From: Candidatus Poribacteria bacterium
GTDB taxonomy: Bacteria; Poribacteria; WGA-4E; JAJDTR01
Direction of reading: 5' to 3'
Assembly (NCBI GenBank): GCA_965222225.1
Contig: CBDCTK010000002.1
Span: 4,416,001 to 4,480,000 of the forward strand
DNA length: 64,000 bases
Below the pieces are notes generated by a model. That model saw only the letters and a program-made list of their open reading frames with translations, was not told the origin of the DNA and did no database searches. Positions 5,369-17,188 of the stretch are shown one piece after another (the stretch's first letter is position 1; each line of letters opens with the position of its first letter). The translations under genes were made by a program, and so were the position numbers.

Positions 5369-8089
5369 ATGGACGGACCAAAAAAGGCCATTGAAAAAGC
5401 CCTGCACGAATTCGCCAGCGGTGACCTTTCCGAGAACGCCAAGAAGTTGTTCAAAGAACTCGGCTACGAGAGCGAGAGGACGATGAACCTTGACCCCAAC
5501 ACCGCAGACAGCTTCCTTTCCGCCTTCAATCTCCAAGACAATCAAGGTTTCAACCCCGAACGAGCGCTGATCGCGAAATGGGAATCAATAGATCTTCTGT
5601 TTCAGTTAACGGAGGAGGAAATCGGTAACAATCCCAATCTTGAGATCGACTTCGGAGACGGCGGCATTGACGAGGCGCGCATGGAGTCGTACCTCTTTTT
5701 CGCCATTAAGCTAAGCGGTGACCATTACACGCGGACACAACTCTCCCAAATTACGCGCGAAATCAACAAACCTTTCGACATGCCCGCCATGATTCTCTTC
5801 CAACATGGCGGGGCACTCACCTTCGCAGTGATTGACCGGCGTCTCAACAAACTCGACGAATCTAAAGATGTTCTCCTAAAGACAACCCTCATCAAAGACA
5901 TCAACTTCGCCAATCCCCACCGCGCGCACATTGACATTTTGTCTGACCTCTCAATTGACGAACTATATGCGAAGCACGAGTTCAAAAATTTCCCGGAACT
6001 TCATGAAGCGTGGAGAGGGACACTAGATACCGAGGAACTCAATCGACAGTTTTACCAGAAATTGTTTAAATGGTTTGAGTGGGCAGTATGTGAGGCAAGA
6101 TTCCCGGAGAGTGAGAAACGCACTTTGAAACCGGAGGAACACGTTATTCGGTTAATCACGCGCTTGCTTTTCGTCTGGTTCATCAAGGAGAAAGGACTGG
6201 TTGCGGATGAGTTGTTCAACGACACGCAAGTCGCACGTTTGATGAAAGACTATGACCGTGACAGTGGGGATTCTTACTACCGTGCGGTGCTGCAGAACCT
6301 GTTCTTTGCCACGTTGAACACCGAGATTGAGGAGCGTCGGTTTAGCAGAATGACAAGGGACGACCATCGCAATTTCACACTGTATCGCTACAAAGATCAG
6401 ATAAGCAACCCTGATGCTTTACTGACACTCTTCTCCCAAACGCCATTCATCAACGGCGGGTTGTTCGATTGTCTTGATGACTACAAAGCAATACTAGCGG
6501 GCGGTTCCCGCATTGACTGTTTTTCGGATGAGCATTACTGGAAGTTAAGTGTTCCTAACAGTCTGTTCTTTAACGAGACTCGTGGTCTGTTCCCCCTTCT
6601 GACCCACTACAAGTTCACTGTAGAAGAAAACACGCCGATAGAGGAGGAGGTCGCGTTGGATCCTGAATTGCTCGGAAAGGTGTTTGAGAATCTGCTGGCG
6701 GCATATAATCCGCAAACCGGCACAACCGCGCGCAAACAGACTGGCTCCTACTACACGCCGCGCGTTATCGTGGACTACATGGTGGAGGAAGCGCTGGTAG
6801 CGGCGCTTGCAGAACGGGTGAAACCGACAGATGGAGATGCGGAGTTCTGGAGTGAGCGGTTGCATTATTTGCTGGACTACGCAATGGCATTCGATGATGC
6901 GAGCGAATGGTTCGATGACCGGGAATTAAACGACATTGTCCGGAAAATCTCAGATTTGAAGATTTTGGACCCGGCGGTGGGGTCCGGTGCCTTCCCGATG
7001 GGGATGCTGCACAAACTGACACTTGCACTACGCCGGCTCGACCCGGACAATATCCGGTGGGAGAAATTGCAGAAGGAACGCGCGGGGCAACGAGCGACGG
7101 CGGCTTTCGATACCTCAGACCAACAGGAACGGGATGCGGAATTGACAGAGATCAGCGACACTTTCGAGCGATACCGCGATTCGGATTTTGGTCGGAAGTT
7201 GTACCTGATTCAGAACAGCATCTTCGGTGTGGATATTCAATCCATCGCCTGCCAAATTTCCAAACTGCGTTTCTTTATCTCGCTTACAATTGAGCAGGAA
7301 CCGAATGATTTAGTGGACAACTTTGGTATCAAGCCCTTGCCAAATTTGGAGACGCGCTTTATTGCTGCGAACACGTTAATCGGCCTAAAAACAGAAATCC
7401 AGTTATTTCTGGAAAATGACACCGTTCAAAAAAAGCAATCCGAAATTCAGTTAATACGCGAAAAGTATTTCTTGGCAAGCACTCGAAAGGAAAAGCTCGG
7501 ACAAATTGACAAGGAAGATGAGTGTCGCAGAGAATTAGAACAGGCATTGAATAAACAGCAAGTTGCATGGGTCATGCAGCAGAAAAGACAGATAGAGCAC
7601 AAGGTTGCTCAGCTTCCAACTGAAGAACTTCGGAAGGCACTACGGGAAAAACTAGGACACGAATACAAGCGACTTGAGCGAGAACTGAACATTCGCTTTG
7701 AGGAGGCCCGCAAAATCGCCGGATGGGTGCCCTACGACCAGAATTCCTCTGCCGAGTTCTTTGATGCGGAAGGAATGTTTGGTGTTAAAGACGGTTTTGA
7801 TGTGGTGCTAGGGAATCCACCGTATATTCAGTTGCAGAAGGATGGTGGAAAATTAGGGCGTTTGTATGAACCATGCAAATTTGATAGTTTCACAAAAACA
7901 GGGGATATCTACTGTCTGTTCTATGAGAAAGCAATTCAATTGTCAAATGACGGTGGGCATGTCTTCTTTATTACTTCCAACAAATGGATGCGTGCAGGGT
8001 ACGGCAAAAAGCTACGAGATTATCTCATTAAACACACCCAACCGATTCAGCTGTTGGATATGGGCCGGATGTATTTGACGCCACAGTAG
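5369..8089 (+). CDS. Eco57I-like / Type IIG-like restriction-modification N6-adenine methyltransferase, N-terminal part (frameshifted)
   Basis: RKQTGSYYTP, motif I ILDPAVGSGAF, IFGVDIQ, motif IV VLGNPPY, DIYCLFYE, FITSNKW. Confidence 0.88.
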   Translation: MDGPKKAIEKALHEFASGDLSENAKKLFKELGYESERTMNLDPNTADSFLSAFNLQDNQGFNPERALIAKWESIDLLFQLTEEEIGNNPNLEIDFGDGGIDEARMESYLFFAIKLSGDHYTRTQLSQITREINKPFDMPAMILFQHGGALTFAVIDRRLNKLDESKDVLLKTTLIKDINFANPHRAHIDILSDLSIDELYAKHEFKNFPELHEAWRGTLDTEELNRQFYQKLFKWFEWAVCEARFPESEKRTLKPEEHVIRLITRLLFVWFIKEKGLVADELFNDTQVARLMKDYDRDSGDSYYRAVLQNLFFATLNTEIEERRFSRMTRDDHRNFTLYRYKDQISNPDALLTLFSQTPFINGGLFDCLDDYKAILAGGSRIDCFSDEHYWKLSVPNSLFFNETRGLFPLLTHYKFTVEENTPIEEEVALDPELLGKVFENLLAAYNPQTGTTARKQTGSYYTPRVIVDYMVEEALVAALAERVKPTDGDAEFWSERLHYLLDYAMAFDDASEWFDDRELNDIVRKISDLKILDPAVGSGAFPMGMLHKLTLALRRLDPDNIRWEKLQKERAGQRATAAFDTSDQQERDAELTEISDTFERYRDSDFGRKLYLIQNSIFGVDIQSIACQISKLRFFISLTIEQEPNDLVDNFGIKPLPNLETRFIAANTLIGLKTEIQLFLENDTVQKKQSEIQLIREKYFLASTRKEKLGQIDKEDECRRELEQALNKQQVAWVMQQKRQIEHKVAQLPTEELRKALREKLGHEYKRLERELNIRFEEARKIAGWVPYDQNSSAEFFDAEGMFGVKDGFDVVLGNPPYIQLQKDGGKLGRLYEPCKFDSFTKTGDIYCLFYEKAIQLSNDGGHVFFITSNKWMRAGYGKKLRDYLIKHTQPIQLLDMGRMYLTPQ

Positions 8090-8106
8090 ATGCCAATATC
8101 CTGCTT

Positions 8107-9099
8107 TTGCGAAATTCCGCACTTGATTTGCGCACGGCATTCAGAGCTTGTACCATGAAATCTGATTTCGACAAACAAGTAGGGAACATAGCCCGATACC
8201 TGAAGAACAATGGCGTGACCATGGAACTACCGCCCAACGGCGAACCGTGGACGATACTTTCACCGGCAAAACTTGCCCTGAAACGCAAAATAGAGGGTGT
8301 TGGAAAAGCACTCAAAGACTGGGATATAAACATCCATTATGGGATAAAAACAGGTTGCAATGAAGCATTCATCATAAATGAAGCAAAGCGTGAAGAACTG
8401 ATTGCACAGGACCCAAGGTCAGTCGAAATCATCAAGCCATTTCTGCGCGGCCGAGACATCAAACGCTATCATGTTCAATGGGCAGGCTTGTACATGTTGG
8501 CAACCCAATACAATCTGGATATTCCAAAAAAGTATCCCGCTATCTACAATCACCTCAAAACCGTAGGAGAACAGATAGAATCTGGAAGAATAAAGGCAAA
8601 AGGTAAAGGGTTATTCAATAGGGACGACCAAGGCGAGAACTGGTGGAATCTCAGAGCTTGTGCTTACTACGCCGAATTTGAAGAAGAGAAGGTTGTTTAT
8701 CCCGAAACAACTCTCGCTGCTAACTTTTTCTACGATGAAGAGCGACATTTCATAGAGAAAACCTGTTTTATGATAACTGGTAGCGATTTAAAAATCTTAG
8801 TGGGATTGTTGAGTTCCACGCTATTGACATTTGTATACAGACAATACTACGGTGGTACTGTGCTCGGCAATAAGGGATATCAATACAACAAACATGCCCT
8901 AGAAGAGCTCCCGGTTATTGAGATTTCTGCTACAGAACAGCGTTCTTTTATCTCTTTAGTCGATCAGATTCTCGACGCCAAACGTGCCGATTCGGACGCC
9001 GATGTATCCGAACTTGAAAGTGACATTGACCAGGTGGTATACTCGTTGTACAATCTGACTGCTGAAGAAATTGCTATTGTGGAGGAAAACACGGTCTGA
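8107..9099 (+). CDS. C-terminal target-recognition part (TaqI_C-like) of the same enzyme, in the -1 frame from about 8065
   Basis: The frame upstream of 8107 reads PDVFDATVDANILLL and continues the first ORF; GIKTGCNEAF, KPFLRGRDIKRY, WWNLRACAYY, IDQVVYSLYNLT. Confidence 0.85.
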   Translation: MRNSALDLRTAFRACTMKSDFDKQVGNIARYLKNNGVTMELPPNGEPWTILSPAKLALKRKIEGVGKALKDWDINIHYGIKTGCNEAFIINEAKREELIAQDPRSVEIIKPFLRGRDIKRYHVQWAGLYMLATQYNLDIPKKYPAIYNHLKTVGEQIESGRIKAKGKGLFNRDDQGENWWNLRACAYYAEFEEEKVVYPETTLAANFFYDEERHFIEKTCFMITGSDLKILVGLLSSTLLTFVYRQYYGGTVLGNKGYQYNKHALEELPVIEISATEQRSFISLVDQILDAKRADSDADVSELESDIDQVVYSLYNLTAEEIAIVEENTV

Positions 9100-9251: not shown

Positions 9252-11369
9252 ATGAACAAACCTCTAAAAGGTTTCATCACCTATTCGCATAAAGACGAAC
9301 AGAAAAGGAAAAAATTGCGGACGTGTCTTGCTGTAATGGAGCGGGCAGGCGAGGTGACAATTCGCGACGATAGTGACATCAACCCGGGCGGCAAAGCGCG
9401 TCAGGAAGACATTCTTAAAGAAGTTGCTGATTCGGATATTCTGCTTTATCTCGTTTCTACTGATAGCCTTGCATCTGGAAACTGTAACAGAGAGTTGACC
9501 GAGGCAGTGAGAGCCAACAGACGTGTTATCCCCATCATCCTTGAGAGTTGTGATTGGCTGAATGACCGACTCCACGGCTTCGGAGCTCTTCCGGACAAAG
9601 GCAAAGCCATAAACAAATGGAAACCTCAGAGTGATGGATGGCAGAATGTAGTGGATGGTATTCGAGAAGTTATTGAAGAAATGCAAGCTCAAGCGGATAC
9701 ATCATCCGGGACATCTGAAGAAGAACTACAGGCTAAATTGGCACTCAGATACGGTAACGACTTAATGATGATTGGACAAACCGACAGAGCAATAGAAAGC
9801 TATTCGCACGCAATTGAAATTGACCGAAATTATGCCGAGGCTTATAACAATCGCGGGGTTGCATACCAGAAAAAGGGCGACTTTAACCGCGCCATTACAG
9901 ATTTTACCAAAGTGATAGAGCTTAAACCCAATGATGCCGTAGCCTATACCAATCGCGGGGGCATTTATGGGGACACAGGTGATTATGACCGTGCCATCGC
10001 AGATGTTAATACCGCAATAAAACTCAAACCCAATTATGCCGGAGCGTATAATAATCGCGGGTTAGTTTATAATAATAAAGGAGATTTTAACCGTGCCATT
10101 GAGGATTATACGACGGCGATACAACTCGACCCGCATCATGCAATAGCCTATTGTAATCGTGGCATAGCTTACAACAGCAAAAATGAGTATGACCACGCCA
10201 TCAAAGACTTTAACGTGGCCATAGAACTCAAGCCAAACCTTGCCAACGCCTATTGCAATCGTGGCGGTGCTCACATTCATAAGGGGGATTATAACCGCGC
10301 CGTCGGCGACTTGGACACAGCAATAGACCTGAACCCCAATCTTGCAGAAGCCTATGCGGATCGTGGCGGTGCATACATTCATAAAGGGGATTATGACCGC
10401 GCCATCGCTGACCTGAACACGGCGATAGACTTGAAACCCGATAACACCGAAGCCTTTACCAATCGAGGCCTAGCCTTAATTCATGCAGGGGATTATGACT
10501 GTGCCATCGGCGACTTGAACACGGCAATAGGCTTGAAACCAGATCATGCCAGTGCTTATAACAATCGTGGACTAGCTTACGTTCATAAAGGCAATTTGAA
10601 CCGCGCCATCGTGGATTTTAACGTGGCGATAGACCTGAAATCTGATTTTGGCGAAGCCTATAACAATCGTGGAAGTGCTTACATTCATGAAGGGGATTAT
10701 GACCGCGCCGTCGACGACTTCAATGCGGCGATAGACCTGAAATCTAATGATGCCGGAGCCTATACTAATCGTGGTATTGCACAGGCCAAAAAAGGGAATC
10801 TTAATCTAGCCATTGGAGATTTTAATACAGCGATACAACTCAATCCCAATGATGCCATGGCCTATTCTAATCGCGGACAGACCTACAGTGATATAGGTGA
10901 TTATGATCGTGCTATCATAGACTTTGGCGCAGCGATACAATTGGACCCCCACAATGCCATCACCTACTACAATTGTGGTATCGCTTATAACAACAACGGA
11001 GAATACGAACACGCCATCGCAAACTTTGACATGGCCGTAAAGCGGAATCCCAATTTTGCAAACGCCTATCATCTTCGGGGTATTGCCTACAGAAACCAAA
11101 GGAAATTTAGCCCTGCCATAGCAGACTTCAGCAATGCGATTCAACTCAATCCGAATTTGCCGGGAGCCTATTGTAATCGCGGCGAGGCGCGGTTGCACCT
11201 ACGTGAATGGGAGAAAGCGAAATCAGACTTAATGGTTGCAAAGGATAAAGGCGTAGATATCATTGCTCCCTTTCGTATTTGCTACAAAGGCGTTGAGGAT
11301 TTTGAGCAGAAGAATAACGTGAAATTACCGGAAGACATTGTTGCGATGCTTACGCCACCGGCAGGTTGA
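9252..11369 (+). CDS. TIR domain plus about 15 tetratricopeptide repeats
   Basis: N-terminal FITYSHKD...SDILLYLVS.DSLAS..CNRELTEA...VIPIILESCDW (TIR_2-like); 34-aa AYxNRG...AIxDFxxAIxLxP repeats. Confidence 0.9.
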   Translation: MNKPLKGFITYSHKDEQKRKKLRTCLAVMERAGEVTIRDDSDINPGGKARQEDILKEVADSDILLYLVSTDSLASGNCNRELTEAVRANRRVIPIILESCDWLNDRLHGFGALPDKGKAINKWKPQSDGWQNVVDGIREVIEEMQAQADTSSGTSEEELQAKLALRYGNDLMMIGQTDRAIESYSHAIEIDRNYAEAYNNRGVAYQKKGDFNRAITDFTKVIELKPNDAVAYTNRGGIYGDTGDYDRAIADVNTAIKLKPNYAGAYNNRGLVYNNKGDFNRAIEDYTTAIQLDPHHAIAYCNRGIAYNSKNEYDHAIKDFNVAIELKPNLANAYCNRGGAHIHKGDYNRAVGDLDTAIDLNPNLAEAYADRGGAYIHKGDYDRAIADLNTAIDLKPDNTEAFTNRGLALIHAGDYDCAIGDLNTAIGLKPDHASAYNNRGLAYVHKGNLNRAIVDFNVAIDLKSDFGEAYNNRGSAYIHEGDYDRAVDDFNAAIDLKSNDAGAYTNRGIAQAKKGNLNLAIGDFNTAIQLNPNDAMAYSNRGQTYSDIGDYDRAIIDFGAAIQLDPHNAITYYNCGIAYNNNGEYEHAIANFDMAVKRNPNFANAYHLRGIAYRNQRKFSPAIADFSNAIQLNPNLPGAYCNRGEARLHLREWEKAKSDLMVAKDKGVDIIAPFRICYKGVEDFEQKNNVKLPEDIVAMLTPPAG

Positions 11370-12248
11370 GATTTGACAGACCGTTGCGCCTCCGAGGTAA
11401 TTGTGGAGGAAGGGATGGAAAACTGTCCGAATCACGGATTAAACAGAATACGCAGATTAGTGAATTTTTATCGATCAACTGGGCGGATAGATCGAACGAG
11501 CGATTAGCGAGTGATCAACTGAGCGATTAATGAAGGCGATAGAGATCCCATAGAGATCTTAAGGCGATAATTCCCCCATAGCGCCTTCCGTTCGACAGTG
11601 TTTATCCCGCGCCCTTCCAAATCTGATTGTTGACAAAAAGGCATTATTTCGTCAAATTTCGTCAAGTTGTGTCGTGTTTTGTCACGTAACCTTCGTTAGA
11701 AGCATTCACTTGAATCCGAGTTTCTACTTCAAAACCCGCGATCTTTATCGCAAAATCTTTTCGAGTGCACACCGCCGCCAAGCGGCAGAATAAATCCACG
11801 GAGCGAATAGATTAGCCACTTGACCTATTCAATCGTTCGATCGGTCATTTTCCATACATACCGAGTCGTCTCGACATGTATCGCGGCGAAAACTCTCGGA
11901 ATGGAGATGGGTTCAATTTGGCAAATGTCAACACGCTCTAGTACCCTTGAACCGGCTAGGGGATCGATCCGGTTTCAGAGTGTTGTTCCGAGGTCCATGC
12001 ACTGCATACCGCCGAGAAACTAGTCCTGGAACGGGTTCTCCCTGTTTCCTGTGACGCTTCGTTTCTCGCGTCTACTCTGAAAACTCTGAAAATCACATGA
12101 CCGCAGCCGCGTTAGATGAAGTGTCAGATTGAGTAAACCGCGGACGAGCCCTCACATCAGGCACACTTGCAGTAGGGTGGGCACTGCCCACCATCAGCAA
12201 ACGCCCAATGGCTGCTCAAATTAACGACATCCCATAAAGGAAAAAAAC

Positions 12249-15200
12249 ATGACAGAAAACCCCTCACTATTCCCGTCCGGCATCCGGGACAACCGCGAGC
12301 GGGGGACGGTCGGCAAGTTCCTTGAATCGCAGATTGAGAACGGGTCGTCGCTTTCGGTTGTCTCGGCGTACTTTACAATCTACGCTTTCGAGGCGTTGAA
12401 ATCGTCCTTACTTGGAATCAGTGACCTTCGCTTTCTGTTCGGCGAACCCCGATTCATCAAAAAGCTTGACCCCGACAAAACGGAAAAGAAATCCTTCGTC
12501 ATAGATAGCGACGGTTTGCAGTTGGAGAACCAGCTCCAACTCAAGCGTGTGGCACGGGAATGCGCCGAGTGGATTCAGGAGAAGGTGGAGATTCGGTCAA
12601 TCCGTGAATCAAATATGCTGCACGGGAAGATGTACCATATCGCCAAGAACGGCGTGGAAAACGCCATCCTCGGCAGCTCGAATTTTACCGTTCGCGGCTT
12701 GGGATTGAGTGAGTCAGGCAGCAATATTGAACTGAATCTGAAGGTGGCGGACGACCGCGACCGGAGCGATCTGAAGTTGTGGTTTGATGAACTGTGGAAT
12801 GATAAGAAACGGGTCGAGGATGTTAAGGAGGAGGTGTTGTCCTACCTTAACCAACTCTATGAGAATTACGCGCCGGAGTTTGTCTACTACAAGACGCTCT
12901 TTCATATTTTTGAGCGATTCTTGAGCGATCAGGAGGGACGGGGATTGCTGGACGAACCGGCGCAACTGGTCGATACGCAGATTTGGAAAGCGCTCTATGA
13001 ATTTCAGAAGGATGGCGTGAAGGGGGCAATCAACAAAATCTTGACGCATAACGGGTGTATCATCGCGGACAGTGTGGGCTTGGGCAAAACGTACGAGGCA
13101 TTGGCGGTGATAAAATACTTTGAACTGCGTAACGACAACGTGCTGGTGCTGTGTCCGAAGAAGCTGCGTGAGAATTGGACGCTCTACCAAGCATACACGG
13201 GAAACAAACTCAATCCGTTCCCCAATGACCGATTCGGTTACACCGTGCTGTCGCATACCGACCTGAGCCGGGAGGGAGGCAAGTCGGGGGATATCGACCT
13301 TTCGTCGTTCAACTGGGCCAACTACGGTCTGGTGGTTATAGATGAGTCGCACAATTTCCGAAACAACACGCCTGGAAAAAAAGATCGGGACGGCAACCTG
13401 ATACGCTTGAGCCGCTACAAGCGGCTGATGGAGGACATTGTCAAGAGCGGGGTAAAGACCAAGATGCTGTTGCTGTCGGCGACGCCGGTGAACAACGACC
13501 TACGAGATTTGCGGAACCAACTCTATTTTCTTACAGAGGAACGCGACGACGCTTTCAAGGACTCACTCGGTGTCGCCAACCTGAGAGAGACTATCACAGC
13601 CGCCCAAACGGCGTTCAACAAGTGGGCGAAAGAGGACGGTGCGCGTAACAGTCAGAAGTTGCTGGAGGAACTGAGTACTGCCTTCTTCAAGTTGCTTGAC
13701 GGGTTGACGATTGCCCGTTCGCGGAAGCAGATTCAGAAGTATTATCCCAAGTCGCTGAGAGAACTTGGCGGCTTCCCGGAACGCAGTAAGCCAGTTTCGC
13801 TTTCTCCGCCTATTGATACACTCGGGGAGTTCATGTCTTACGACAAACTTAACGAGGAGATTTCCGAGTATCAACTCTCCTTGTACAATCCTACCAAATA
13901 TCTCCGACCCGAATACCAGTGCGAATATGACCTAGAGCCCGTCAGAAACTTTACGCAGAGCGACCGCGAGCACTTTCTAATCGGCATGATGAGGGTAAAC
14001 TTCCTCAAACGCTTGGAAAGCTCCGTTCGCTCCTTTAGGATTACGTTGAAGCGTACGCTTGATAAGATTGAGGAGTTGGAGGCGCGTATCCGACGGTTTC
14101 AGGAGTATCGCGCCGGAAATCCCGACCTGGATCCGGCGGAGATGGAGATTGACGCCGATGATGACGAAGAACTACAGGCGGCGTTCGAGGTGGGCAAGAG
14201 CCTAGTGTTCAAGATGGCGCACCTTGATGTTGAGCGGTGGTTAGAGGATTTGAAACAGGACAGGGAGCAACTTGAGGGGCCGTACCGCTCGGCAGAGAAA
14301 GTCAGCCCTGTCCGCGATGCCAAACTGGCGAAACTCAAGGAACTAATTGAGGCTAAGGTTAAGCACCCGACAATCACCAAGAATGGGAATCCCAATCGGA
14401 AGGTACTGGTGTTCACGGCTTTTGCGGATACCGCCGACTACCTCTACGGGGAGTTACATGAATGGGCACAGGCAGAATTGGGCATCCGCACCGGGATGGT
14501 GACGGGGGGCGCCATGCCCAACAGAACCACGCTTGGCAAGACCAACTTCATCGACATTCTCACCAATTTCTCGCCCATTGCAAAGAACCGCGCGCACGAC
14601 GATTCCATGCCCCAAGAAGCCGAGATTGACCTGCTCATCGGCACGGATTGTATCTCGGAAGGACAGAACCTGCAAGACTGCGATTACCTGATTAACTACG
14701 ACATTCATTGGAATCCGGTACGCATCATCCAGCGGTTCGGGCGGATTGACCGTATCGGGAGCGTCAATAAGAGCGTACACTTGGTAAACTTCTGGCCCAC
14801 TCCCGACTTAAACCGTTACATCAACCTGAAAAATCGGGTTGAAGCGCGGATGGCGTTGGTGGATGTCACGGCTACGCAGGGAGACAACTTGCTCGATCCG
14901 GACGCACTTCCCGACGTGATTGCGGGTGACCTCAAGTACCGCGACCAGCAACTCCTAAAACTTCAGGAGGAAATCCTTGACCTTGAAGAGTTTAACGAAA
15001 GCGTTGCCCTCAACGAGTTCACGCTGGACGATTTCCGCATGGAACTAATCAAGTATATTGAAAGTAACAGGAAGAAACTTGAAGAGGCACCCTTCGGACT
15101 TTACGCGGTTGTGCCGCCGCTTGCGGGAGATCCAATAATTCAACCCGGCGTCATCTTCTGCCTGCGACAGAAAACGGAATCGGAGGAGAACGAAAAGTTG

Positions 15201-15653
15201 AATCCTACCCAACCCTATTTCCTCGTCTATGTTCGGGAGGATGGCGTCGTGCGGTTTACCTTTGCGCAGCCGAAGCAGATTCTTGAGATGTACCGGCAAC
15301 TGTGTGCGACGAAAACTAGCCCGTATGACGAGTTGTGTGCGTTGTTCGACGAGCATACGGAGGACGGCGGCGACATGTCGCAATACGACAAACTACTCCG
15401 GGAAGCCGTGAGGTCCATTTCTTATACGTACGAGAAACGCGCCTTCAGCAGTCTGCGATCCGGTCGCGGTGGGGTTTTGCCACTCGAGTCAGAGCAGGTT
15501 GGCGACACGACGGACTTTGAGTTGGTGACGTGGTTGGTGATTAAGGACGGATCGTCTCCCACAAAGCTGAATGAGCTTCTGGATCAAGTGACAGAATACA
15601 AGATTCATGGTGAAGTAGACACCGGATCTCCGGTGGGGCGTGAAGAATGGTAA
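12249..15653 (+). CDS. PLD-family nuclease / SNF2-type helicase with a C-terminal MazE-like tail
   Basis: LHGKMY...GSSNF (HxK/GSxN), ADSVGLGKT, VIDESHNF, LSATP, ISEGQNLQ, QRFGRIDR; tail KLNELLDQVTEYKIHGEVDTGSPVGREEW. Confidence 0.9.
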   Translation: MTENPSLFPSGIRDNRERGTVGKFLESQIENGSSLSVVSAYFTIYAFEALKSSLLGISDLRFLFGEPRFIKKLDPDKTEKKSFVIDSDGLQLENQLQLKRVARECAEWIQEKVEIRSIRESNMLHGKMYHIAKNGVENAILGSSNFTVRGLGLSESGSNIELNLKVADDRDRSDLKLWFDELWNDKKRVEDVKEEVLSYLNQLYENYAPEFVYYKTLFHIFERFLSDQEGRGLLDEPAQLVDTQIWKALYEFQKDGVKGAINKILTHNGCIIADSVGLGKTYEALAVIKYFELRNDNVLVLCPKKLRENWTLYQAYTGNKLNPFPNDRFGYTVLSHTDLSREGGKSGDIDLSSFNWANYGLVVIDESHNFRNNTPGKKDRDGNLIRLSRYKRLMEDIVKSGVKTKMLLLSATPVNNDLRDLRNQLYFLTEERDDAFKDSLGVANLRETITAAQTAFNKWAKEDGARNSQKLLEELSTAFFKLLDGLTIARSRKQIQKYYPKSLRELGGFPERSKPVSLSPPIDTLGEFMSYDKLNEEISEYQLSLYNPTKYLRPEYQCEYDLEPVRNFTQSDREHFLIGMMRVNFLKRLESSVRSFRITLKRTLDKIEELEARIRRFQEYRAGNPDLDPAEMEIDADDDEELQAAFEVGKSLVFKMAHLDVERWLEDLKQDREQLEGPYRSAEKVSPVRDAKLAKLKELIEAKVKHPTITKNGNPNRKVLVFTAFADTADYLYGELHEWAQAELGIRTGMVTGGAMPNRTTLGKTNFIDILTNFSPIAKNRAHDDSMPQEAEIDLLIGTDCISEGQNLQDCDYLINYDIHWNPVRIIQRFGRIDRIGSVNKSVHLVNFWPTPDLNRYINLKNRVEARMALVDVTATQGDNLLDPDALPDVIAGDLKYRDQQLLKLQEEILDLEEFNESVALNEFTLDDFRMELIKYIESNRKKLEEAPFGLYAVVPPLAGDPIIQPGVIFCLRQKTESEENEKLNPTQPYFLVYVREDGVVRFTFAQPKQILEMYRQLCATKTSPYDELCALFDEHTEDGGDMSQYDKLLREAVRSISYTYEKRAFSSLRSGRGGVLPLESEQVGDTTDFELVTWLVIKDGSSPTKLNELLDQVTEYKIHGEVDTGSPVGREEW

Positions 15654-16006
15654 GACTGACCAACTACGTTCCACGACGCGGTGATGCGGTGTGGGTTGAC
15701 TTTAATCCTCAAGCTGGGCATGAGCAAGCGGGTCGTCGTCCTGCCGTAGTTCTTTCACCAGAGTCTTATAACGGAACTGTAGGTTTAGCAATTTTGTGCC
15801 CAATTACCAACAAAGTGAAGGGGTATCCCTTTGAGGTGGCTATCCCTCCCGGACTGGAGGTAACAGGCGTAATTCTTGCGGATCAACTCAAGAGCGCAGA
15901 TTGGCAAGTAAGAAATTCCGAGTTGATTTGTTCCTTGCCCATGAACACAGTGGACACGGTTTTGCAGAAAGTCCAAACGCTCTTGGGAAAAGATGATAAA
16001 CCATGA
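15647..16006 (+). CDS. mazF: MazF/PemK-family endoribonuclease toxin
   Basis: YVPRRGDAVWVDFNPQAGHEQAGRRPAVVLSP...CPIT..KGYPFEV closely resembles E. coli MazF; catalytic Arg and Thr positions retained. Confidence 0.95.
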   Translation: MVRLTNYVPRRGDAVWVDFNPQAGHEQAGRRPAVVLSPESYNGTVGLAILCPITNKVKGYPFEVAIPPGLEVTGVILADQLKSADWQVRNSELICSLPMNTVDTVLQKVQTLLGKDDKP

Positions 16007-16177
16007 TTGAATCCAAGTGGAACACTTGTCAATTCACGATGGTTTTTTGTCCTTTAAAACCAAACAAATCAGCAACTCAACATATCTTGGACAGATTGCA
16101 TGGGTGGTGATTAACCAGCGGTGCAGTGAGCGAAAGGGTGTACTGAACTTGGTGCTTTTTGATGGAGAGAATCTCGT

Positions 16178-17188
16178 ATGGCTCTTAAACGAAATGACAG
16201 ACTGAAATGGAATAGCCGATCGATATTGGAAGGTAACGGGCAGATAGGCGATCTTAGGCAGGAGATACCTCAATTTGCGGAAGCTCCGTTCAGCGTAGAA
16301 GACAGAGGGGAGAATAAATATCTAAGACTCATAGTAAGGGAACCTCTCAAGGAAGGTCAAGGATTCCTTTTCCCAAGCAACAACCAAGAGGAGTTGCAGA
16401 TTCCCGTTGCCACCGTCTCAAAACGGTACAAGCTAGTTCAACATCGTCATATAGTAATGTCATTAGAAATGGCGCTGAAAAGAGTTGGTCTGAACCCAGA
16501 ACGTCTTGAAGTCGGATTAACCCTGACAGAGTATGGCGAATGCATGCAGATTAGCTTCTTTATGCCCAACGATTCTCCGTACGCCTTTAATCTCGGCAAT
16601 GAAGACCATGTTTTACAAGTGAATGCATTGAATTCTGTGGATAAAACGACGAAACTGGAGATTAACCTAAGGTGGTATAGTCTTAATTCCCAAACCGGAA
16701 TGTTGGCGCGTCGGGATGCGAGATTGAAAAAAATTCACCTGAAATCGTCGAAATCACTTGAATCTGTCATTAAAGGATTCTTAGAAGAGCAACTTGCTCA
16801 AGCATCAGAGGACATACAACGATTCAGAGAGTGGTATCAAATCAAGGTTTCTTTCGAGCAGTTATCCCATGCGAAGCCTAGTCCAAGCCAAATTGAACAT
16901 TGGATAAAGCGATTCGTCGCTAGGAGATGGGGAGAACATTCAGCCAAAAGAGTGTACCGCATTGCAAGAGAAGGGATGGACCTCCCCAGTCCTCATGAAT
17001 CCCAATACACCAATCCAGTTCTTAGCTCTTTCGCTCCCGTGCGCAATGCCTACGATATCAGTCAAGTGTTAAGTTGGATTGCCAGCCAAGAAGGAACAAT
17101 ACAGAATCAACATGCCCGACGGATGGATATACCAGATTTGATGGAGGCCCTCATTAAAACACAAAAGCCGCTAACGCTGAGCGTGTAA
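16178..17188 (+). CDS. DUF932/DUF945-like protein (mobile-element associated)
   Basis: VATVSKRYKLVQH, a central NSVD.T segment, LKKIHLK and a C-terminal NAYDISQ resemble the DUF932 family pattern; recognised from memory, not searched. Confidence 0.5.
   Translation: MALKRNDRLKWNSRSILEGNGQIGDLRQEIPQFAEAPFSVEDRGENKYLRLIVREPLKEGQGFLFPSNNQEELQIPVATVSKRYKLVQHRHIVMSLEMALKRVGLNPERLEVGLTLTEYGECMQISFFMPNDSPYAFNLGNEDHVLQVNALNSVDKTTKLEINLRWYSLNSQTGMLARRDARLKKIHLKSSKSLESVIKGFLEEQLAQASEDIQRFREWYQIKVSFEQLSHAKPSPSQIEHWIKRFVARRWGEHSAKRVYRIAREGMDLPSPHESQYTNPVLSSFAPVRNAYDISQVLSWIASQEGTIQNQHARRMDIPDLMEALIKTQKPLTLSV

Follow-up and report, generated by a model that had tools for sequence, protein, structure and literature searches.

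In the genome of an uncultured sponge-associated bacterium, Candidatus Poribacteria, one gene joins a nuclease-helicase in frame to the toxin-binding end of an antitoxin. The gene lies in a stretch of 64,000 nucleotides (nt), herein referred to as the window, whose coordinates are used throughout. Its product consists of an N-terminal HKD(PLD) nuclease domain, a SNF2-type helicase core, and a C-terminal tail resembling the antitoxin MazE, and it overlaps mazF, an intact gene for the MazF endoribonuclease toxin. We put at roughly 70% the probability that this tail neutralises MazF, i.e., that a MazEF pair has been reduced here to an inhibitory peptide grafted onto an HKD-SNF2 enzyme, judging from sequence comparisons and a predicted complex. 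An old in-frame deletion in a mazEF cassette has probably turned the helicase into the antitoxin carrier. The parts of the locus are as follows.

12249..15653, plus strand: gene for the chimeric HKD(PLD)-SNF2 nuclease-helicase with the MazE-derived tail, 1134 amino acids (aa), a single open reading frame (ORF) (translation, Pfam, PADLOC)
12525..12797, plus strand: HKD/PLD nuclease domain, residues 93-183 (Pfam PLDc_2, 8.3e-08; RE_NgoFVII, 1.9e-06)
12864..14852, plus strand: SNF2-type helicase core, residues ~206-868 (Pfam SNF2-rel_dom, ResIII, Helicase_C)
15519..15545, plus strand: last strand and usual end of the helicase family, ELVTWLVIK, residues 1091-1099 (PADLOC profile end, tail-less orthologues)
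15546..15563, plus strand: junction or linker DGSSPT, residues 1100-1105, ambiguous in origin (helicase 3' end or flank, or MazE linker)
15564..15650, plus strand: MazE-derived, putatively toxin-binding peptide KLNELLDQVTEYKIHGEVDTGSPVGREEW, residues 1106-1134 (MazE profile, invariant columns, fold model)
15647..15653, plus strand: 7-nt overlap ATGGTAA, with the mazF start within the last helicase codons (sequence)
15647..16006, plus strand: mazF, intact endoribonuclease toxin gene, 119 aa (Pfam, NCBIfam, solved MazF structures)

The ORF ends in ...FELVTWLVIK DGSSPT KLNELLDQVTEYKIHGEVDTGSPVGREEW, followed by the stop codon at 15651-15653; the extension past WLVIK comprises 35 residues (DGSSPTKLNELLDQVTEYKIHGEVDTGSPVGREEW). 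The sequence GAAGAATGGTAA at 15642-15653 holds both the ATG of mazF, at 15647, and the helicase stop, which ends at 15653, leaving 7 nt common to both genes. An earlier reading made from the letters of the DNA alone (the sequence-only reading) had described this in-frame run into the tail and the overlap with mazF, and the sequence confirms every detail. The ATGGTAA-type overlap is the commonest mazE/mazF arrangement among related free mazEF loci, and mazF is probably translationally coupled to the helicase gene.

Sequence comparison identifies the tail with the half of a MazE that binds MazF: the resemblance greatly exceeds what chance would produce, and its position, overlapping mazF, is the canonical one. 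For comparison, 80 loci encoding the nearest MazF relatives were fetched, one of which (L017) is an orthologue of the fusion, leaving 79. A full MazE of ~80 aa is encoded directly upstream of mazF in 74 of these 79 loci, mostly with the same overlap. The other five include two loci cut by contig ends, one missed by the search pattern, and two with different N-termini. The free MazE proteins follow the pattern M..QKWGNSLALRIPK...LVItPv...LxLxdLLaqVTexNLHgEvDTGxavGrExW, the Trp being terminal. A profile built from the 74 free proteins was searched, with profile filters off, against 137,900 six-frame ORFs of at least 25 aa from the genome. Its sole match is the C-end of the helicase (E 3.5e-6, profile positions 42-80 of 80); the next candidate has an E of 3.7. 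An alignment of 28 free MazE C-ends has six invariant columns, each of which the tail keeps, and a profile of such C-ends finds the solved MazE chains 7d2n_E (1.3e-14), 1ub4_C (1.3e-10), and 1mvf_D (~1e-10). The AbrB/SpoVT half is missing from the tail: the last 39 aa have no Pfam match, and the MazE profile aligns from position 42 of 80 only. The match of NCBIfam PRK09798 to the tail is weak (E 0.14) and covers positions 54-82 of 82. The identification of the tail with the MazF-binding C-terminus of MazE without AbrB, as proposed in the sequence-only reading, is upheld by the 74-MazE profile, the six invariant columns, and the solved MazE chains. Likewise, no separate mazE was found upstream, or anywhere else in the six-frame search of the genome, where neither Pfam MazE_antitoxin (PF04014) nor NCBIfam MazE gave anything above cut-off. 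Apart from the tail, nothing resembling MazE was found in the genome, which leaves the helicase as the sole visible carrier of an antitoxin. In another genome, a mazE frame (L041, 2774-3007) lacks the conserved M..QKWGNS start, and the match to its MazF covers residues 1-106 only; this locus may be a decaying mazEF.

The helicase family to which the chimera belongs normally ends before the tail. Pfam assigns PLDc_2, SNF2-rel_dom/ResIII, and Helicase_C to the long ORF, the nuclease being N-terminal and the helicase core following it. The best match of the helicase in a defence library is PADLOC PDLC01075 'HKD+Snf2' (E 8.2e-126, profile positions 94-946 of 948), which stops at residue 1097, inside ...FELVTWLVIK. 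In an alignment of 24 homologues, H125, G126, K127, and G142-S143-S144-N145 are invariant, as are the helicase motifs GLGKT, DESH, SATP, and QRFGRIDRIG of the core. The consensus of the same homologues terminates in DFELVTWLVIxxx. Among 61 related genomes, matches reach residue 1133-1134 in only 7; the other full-length matches listed end at query residue 1098-1107, or at 1116-1117 in two that read through TAA stops. Tail-less orthologues end in WLVIKNAGE, WLVIKNLEE, or WLVIQAADA before the stop, or read WLVIENPE..., and distant tail-less homologues in other metagenomes terminate in WLVIKDGKTD. The usual family end at FELxxWLVI, which the sequence-only reading had stated, was recovered from the PADLOC profile, the tail-less orthologues, and the consensus of the homologues. 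The helicase body has a ratio of nonsynonymous to synonymous substitution rates (dN/dS) of ~0.1.

The fusion is real, not an assembly error, and is confined to one genus of uncultured bacteria. Ten species of this genus were compared, including that of the window (G000-G009). The tail together with mazF was found in three (G000, G005, and G006), the tail without mazF in four (G001, G002, G004, and G009), and no tail in three (G003, G007, and G008); overall, the tail is present in seven of the ten, and several tail-bearing genomes are assembled in 1-3 contigs. Metagenomic protein clusters with a tail ending in W number 13, of which 12 are exactly 1134 aa long and one is a partial sequence of 802 aa, and all 13 are orthologues of this helicase. 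This search covered proteins of 623-1985 aa with a query from the tail region and requires common five-residue words, so that distant fusions could escape it. Contigs from a DNA run of another study span 15504-15905 with zero differences. In two RNA libraries, contigs at 15515-15689 (2 differences) and 15598-15901 (3 differences) connect the end of the helicase sequence with the tail and the beginning of mazF. They fit co-transcription of the helicase gene and mazF, which they do not prove because DNA can occur in such libraries. The same RNA library also contains a tail-less allele, diverging after 15544, and a tail allele with unrelated sequence from 15652. A contig of run X16 that stops matching at 15652 hints that mazF was lost a second time.

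A scan of Joint Genome Institute (JGI) metagenome contigs with the last 80 aa returned 15 loci, none of them fused; judged by which part of the query they match, nine of these are ends of helicases and the remaining six are MazE. The ORFs were read in 8 of the 15, giving two tail-less helicases (L137, L139) and six free mazE genes (L141, L142, L147, L148, L150, L151), with a MazF-like ORF after mazE in four of the latter (L141, L142, L147, L151). In a weak test for longer proteins with a MazE part, in which 8000 candidates were scored, 40 proteins of 143-522 aa were found, 39 of them with an AbrB domain and none with a helicase. Precomputed Pfam labels give one of these proteins (P0021, 522 aa) a full MazE domain with GAF and histidine-kinase domains and another (P0042, 193 aa) MazE and PemK domains on one chain. 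No published report of a SNF2/HKD helicase with a MazE tail was found in the literature covered, which leaves out most subscription journals and supplements.

A single in-frame deletion running from the helicase end into mazE is the simplest and most likely origin of the fusion. MazE homology is clear from KLNELL (15564) onward, and DGSSPT is assignable to neither parent. The DNA homology of the helicase with tail-less alleles stops after ATTAA(G/A). Since 'KDG' also terminates distant tail-less helicases, the 'KDG' of the fusion is probably helicase-derived. The exact sequence AAGGAC is present right after the stop of the G003 allele, which may be chance, and an LVI microhomology between TTGGTGATTA and TTGGTCATCA of a free mazE is suggestive only. 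The sequence-only reading had offered, as an alternative to its guard proposal, that a recent deletion joined the two genes. A deletion is the most likely origin and does not compete with the main reading, but it is not recent, because seven species share the fusion and the synonymous divergence (dS) of the tail is 0.2-0.7.

Both mazF and the tail are under purifying selection. The dN/dS of mazF is 0.07-0.31, and among the three mazF-bearing species the tail shows 10 synonymous and 3 nonsynonymous changes in 34 codons (rough binomial P 1e-4). The overlap arrangement is kept in all three. The absence of mazF in the four other tail-bearing species is a secondary loss: they share one common junction, and their homology to mazF-bearing alleles stops just after the helicase TAA. 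The sequence-only reading had held that homologues carrying the same tail without mazF would speak against it; such homologues do exist in these four sister species, but they derive from the secondary loss and its one junction. Their tail has nevertheless stayed conserved since, for which pairing with MazF does not by itself account. In these species the last tail codon is altered, from TGG to TTG in three and from TGG to TAG in one, and both changes strike the G of the former mazF ATG. The terminal Trp is kept in 28 of 28 aligned free MazE C-ends.

Exchange between species is evident at the locus. The helicase gene tree is mosaic, with the tail-less G003 allele nesting among tail-bearing ones. 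The segment comprising mazF and the 3' half of the tail (15610-16006) is 99-100% identical between G000 and G005 (loci L001 and L002), whereas the 3' half of the helicase gene is 74-96% identical, i.e., 4-26% different per 100-nt interval, and the flank beyond mazF is unrelated in each species. Near-identical mazF next to diverged helicase sequence indicates that the mazF segment moved recently between species and points to a breakpoint inside the tail.

The toxin gene itself appears intact. MazF matches Pfam PemK_toxin PF02452 (1.4e-25, 90 bits against a cut-off of 23.1) and NCBIfam MazF PRK09907 (125.4 bits against a cut-off of 120), as well as the solved MazF structures 7d28_A (1e-36) and 1ub4_A (1.3e-26). 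In an alignment with E. coli MazF 5ck9, its R31 and T54 fall opposite R29 and T52. Among 33 MazF relatives, T54 is invariant and R31 nearly so. R29 and T52 of the E. coli protein are active-site residues with a catalytic role. With profile scores above cut-off and R31 and T54 kept, MazF looks active, and the earlier description of it as intact agrees with these scores, the two aligned residues, and the dN/dS of mazF. The other PemK-family gene of the genome (G000:C2:2391244-2391547; L014, L015) is frameshifted, its pieces matching profile positions 1-31 and 37-108, and is probably a pseudogene.

Binding of the tail to MazF is predicted by fold modelling with two MazF copies (alignment of 33 sequences) and the last 44 helicase residues (alignment of 29). 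The MazF dimer with this C-end scored 0.80 in three runs, the best of three controls reaching 0.08; in calibration, 58 of 80 solved complexes attained the score mark, as did 2 of 110 mismatched pairs. Contact agreement between the runs was at least 87%, and the partner had a predicted local distance difference test (pLDDT) value of at least 71. In the model, the interface begins one residue ahead of KLNELL and extends to the terminal W (residues 15-44 of the 44 aa modelled). Since MazE-MazF complexes have already been solved (1ub4, 7d2n), the passing of the mark may reflect likeness to them rather than binding by this copy. An experimental precedent is described in PMC3281143: MazF is silenced by the last 35 aa of E. 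coli MazE when these are joined to another protein, and one 23-aa MazE peptide per MazF dimer inactivates both sites. This precedent makes an antitoxin consisting of the tail only plausible.

Two genes upstream of the helicase gene are of defence type.

5369..9099, plus strand: Eco57I/MmeI-like type IIG restriction-methylase in two frames, 5369-8089 and 8107-9099 (Pfam, PADLOC)
9252..11369, plus strand: TIR-TPR protein, 705 aa (Pfam TIR_2 and many TPR families; PADLOC)

The restriction-methylase was assigned from Pfam Eco57I, N6_Mtase, and TaqI_C. Its second piece (8107-9099) matches PADLOC REase_MTase_IIG at positions 955-1246 of 1247, i.e., the C-terminal specificity part only; the pieces are in different frames, 18 nt apart, and probably represent a frameshifted gene. 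The gene for the TIR-TPR protein immediately precedes the helicase gene and may function in defence; its product carries a TIR domain at the N-terminus (ThsB-like, PADLOC 9.5e-23) and, after it, roughly a dozen TPR repeats. The helicase itself scores far under cut-off with all NCBIfam defence models; for the DISARM DrmD equivalog profile it reaches 151.3 bits against a cut-off of 610, with its C-terminal half alone matching. The gene set of Type-2 BR systems (DUF499 ATPase, N6-methyltransferase, and DUF3780) was not found as such at the locus, DUF3780 not having been searched for. Their partner gene DUF499 is absent from it, and the two DUF499 matches of the genome (C2:2.44 Mb and 1.73 Mb) lie 2-2.7 Mb away.

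The surroundings of the helicase gene vary between species. Directly after mazF, a 336-aa ORF (16178-17188) has no Pfam or PADLOC match; G005 and G006 lack it at this position. In the mazF-less species, a ~118-aa toxin-like gene, RelE/HigB-like by eye, and a TPR gene are located downstream of the helicase gene (L003, L004, L005, L107). The same two genes are upstream of it in G005 (L002), which implies rearrangement around the helicase gene. In two tail-less genomes, G003 (L007, 4941-5555) and G007 (L008, 4940-5539), the helicase is followed by an ORF of ~200 aa that by eye resembles a REP-associated tyrosine transposase.

We infer the following history for the locus. A mazEF cassette would once have been located directly behind the HKD-SNF2 helicase gene, and one in-frame deletion would have taken the last few helicase codons, the stop, and approximately the first 50 mazE codons, which encode the AbrB-type DNA-binding and dimerising half. 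The resulting 130-kDa enzyme would now terminate in a peptide of ~29 residues that wraps the MazF dimer, and MazF would be held inactive on the helicase tail, with one tail per dimer. Since the mazF start overlaps the helicase stop, MazF would be made only where full-length helicase is made; with the transcriptional autoregulation by MazE lost, expression would follow the helicase promoter. Loss of the antidote would require loss of the helicase C-end, and truncation or destruction of the helicase would free pre-made MazF.

Several observations weigh against neutralisation of MazF by the helicase tail, or at least against this history. The full-length AlphaFold2 model of the helicase (24 homologues; mean pLDDT 50.1, predicted template-modelling score 0.41, tail below 50) is too poor to tell a free from a docked tail. 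At the DNA level the junction cannot be placed exactly, MAFFT and pairwise alignments of tail-bearing with tail-less alleles disagreeing after ATTAA, and a parental locus with a complete mazE behind this helicase was not found. No second antitoxin of the MazE type was found in the genome, other antitoxin families not having been searched for. The tail of the four mazF-less species is still under purifying selection, with 12 synonymous and 3 nonsynonymous changes (rough P 2e-6). Neutralising an adjacent MazF is hence not the sole constraint on the tail, unless gene flow mimics selection: in the mazF-less species, the tails are conserved either because something other than a neighbouring MazF constrains them or because alleles with mazF have been exchanged into these species. 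Finally, the presence of G003, with neither tail nor mazF, amid tail-bearing alleles indicates that the pair is dispensable.

Neutralisation by the tail could also serve abortive infection, a tentative extension that we consider unlikely on present evidence. A restriction-like HKD-SNF2 sensor would hold MazF latent until a phage blocks, degrades, or occupies the helicase, or foreign DNA reshapes it; the tail would then free MazF, RNA would be cut, and the infected cell would stop. The split type IIG restriction-methylase and the TIR-TPR protein next to the helicase are consistent with such a guard, and so are several parallels in other studies. Fusions of an HKD nuclease with a Swi2/Snf2 helicase are described as the effector of 'Type-2 BR' defence systems (PMC12839542). 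Type II Gabija brings about abortive infection through a helicase and a MazF-like effector, and toxin-antitoxin systems with a role in defence have acquired SNF2 helicases (PMC13069673). The restriction enzyme EcoprrI keeps PrrC latent until a phage inhibitor frees it (PMC1484252), and the HamB helicase restrains the HamA nuclease (10.1101/2024.02.29.582594). However, no trigger, phage, or release mechanism can be seen in the sequence, and a defence role of this helicase family is unproven here, given the low NCBIfam scores and the missing DUF499. Moreover, mazF has been lost in four species, and tail and mazF are both missing in others, as is typical of dispensable toxin-antitoxin cassettes, and the fusion is limited to one genus. 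Similarly doubtful is a combined form, in which the HKD-SNF2 enzyme is both phage sensor and MazF antitoxin and its tail has since been co-opted by the helicase, so that the tail is conserved without mazF. Such a locus would be a natural system, contained in one operon and built by domain grafting, in which a restriction enzyme guards an RNase.

It is quite improbable that the tail performs some separate function in the helicase, whether original or acquired, e.g., as an acidic autoinhibitor mimicking nucleic acid or as a binder of another partner, with MazF as a leftover passenger. In favour of such a role, the tail is equally conserved after mazF loss, pairs of mazF-less species having a tail dN/dS of 0.06-0.19 and a tail dS resembling that of the helicase body. 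No close MazF on which the tails might act was found elsewhere in the mazF-less genomes, where the best candidates are 27-40% identical, and the other PemK loci were rejected as a target in trans, as a ribbon-helix-helix (RHH) antitoxin gene is present just upstream at all four that were read, in G001, G002, G004, and G009. On the other side, the signal comes from 34 codons, the evident interspecies gene flow could keep tails 'fresh', and the terminal Trp was lost twice where mazF is gone, as expected if it served MazF binding. We also know of no such role for MazE peptides.

The proposal that the fusion is an inert relic, in which MazF is not made, is inactive, or is otherwise neutralised and the fusion persists as harmless, has still less in its favour and appears very unlikely. 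A scan of 11300-16400 for sigma-70 promoters gave four promoter-like sites against 3.6 expected, all on the minus strand, leaving mazF without a plus-strand site in a test that is weak for this phylum; six terminator-like sites were found in the same interval against 6.0 expected. The cassette is also gone from some lineages. But mazF is under purifying selection with the invariant residues of its family, the tail is under purifying selection as well, the canonical overlap is kept in 3 of 3 mazF-bearing species, and contigs from RNA libraries cover mazF. An assembly collapse or chimera hiding a complete mazE, raised in the sequence-only reading, can be dismissed: the same junction is present in the genomes of seven species and in 13 metagenomic protein clusters, with sequences diverged by synonymous changes, and the contigs of the second study cross it without differences.

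If the tail does neutralise MazF, the locus shows, in nature, an antitoxin pared down to the smallest inhibitory peptide and attached to a large enzyme with which it has no kinship, and a single deletion can rewire a toxin-antitoxin pair. The antidote would then be a defence-type nuclease-helicase, with the fate of the toxin bound to the integrity of that enzyme, which offers a concrete route by which guard-type or fail-safe defence could arise. Its reach is limited, as the fusion is found in one genus only and is dispensable to several of its species, and as losses of mazF have recurred.

Several known systems resemble this locus in part. Canonical MazEF (E. coli, 1ub4; 7d2n) shares with it the MazF toxin, the C-terminal MazE peptide, the overlap of stop and start, and, as predicted by the model, the wrapping of the toxin by the peptide. 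In contrast to canonical MazEF, the antitoxin here has no AbrB/SpoVT domain and no gene of its own, the peptide being the C-end of a 1134-aa nuclease-helicase; MazE autoregulation and the MazF2-MazE2-MazF2 hexamer presumably cannot form as usual. The effectors of Type-2 BR systems (PMC12839542; PDLC01075) have the same order of HKD nuclease and SNF2 helicase, and a gene for an N6-adenine methylase is located 3 kb upstream here, but this locus has no DUF499 ATPase, and its methylase is of the Eco57I/MmeI type and split. None of the Type-2 BR members described in the accessible text of PMC12839542 is reported there with an antitoxin tail.

In type II Gabija (GajB helicase with the MazF-like GajC) and in ietHAS/DarHTG, PMC13069673 describes a helicase that works with a MazF-fold effector or a toxin-antitoxin pair in defence and is proposed to control the toxin. 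Those systems use a UvrD-like helicase or a SNF2 protein on a chain of its own, their MazF-like part is a split divergent domain, and their helicase bears no fused antitoxin peptide. PrrC-EcoprrI (PMC1484252) is alike in logic only, an RNase being kept silent by a DNA-restriction enzyme. Its proteins are unrelated, PrrC is silenced in a complex with the whole restriction-modification enzyme, and its activation by a phage peptide has been shown experimentally. PsyrTA was dropped as a parallel for a helicase acting as antitoxin, its antitoxin being DprA-like. The engineered tethered MazE peptide (PMC3281143) is alike in that a peptide of ~35 aa on an unrelated protein silences MazF and its removal releases the toxin. 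That construct is man-made, with the peptide tied to MazF, whereas here the arrangement is natural, the peptide is carried by a helicase, and MazF is a separate chain.

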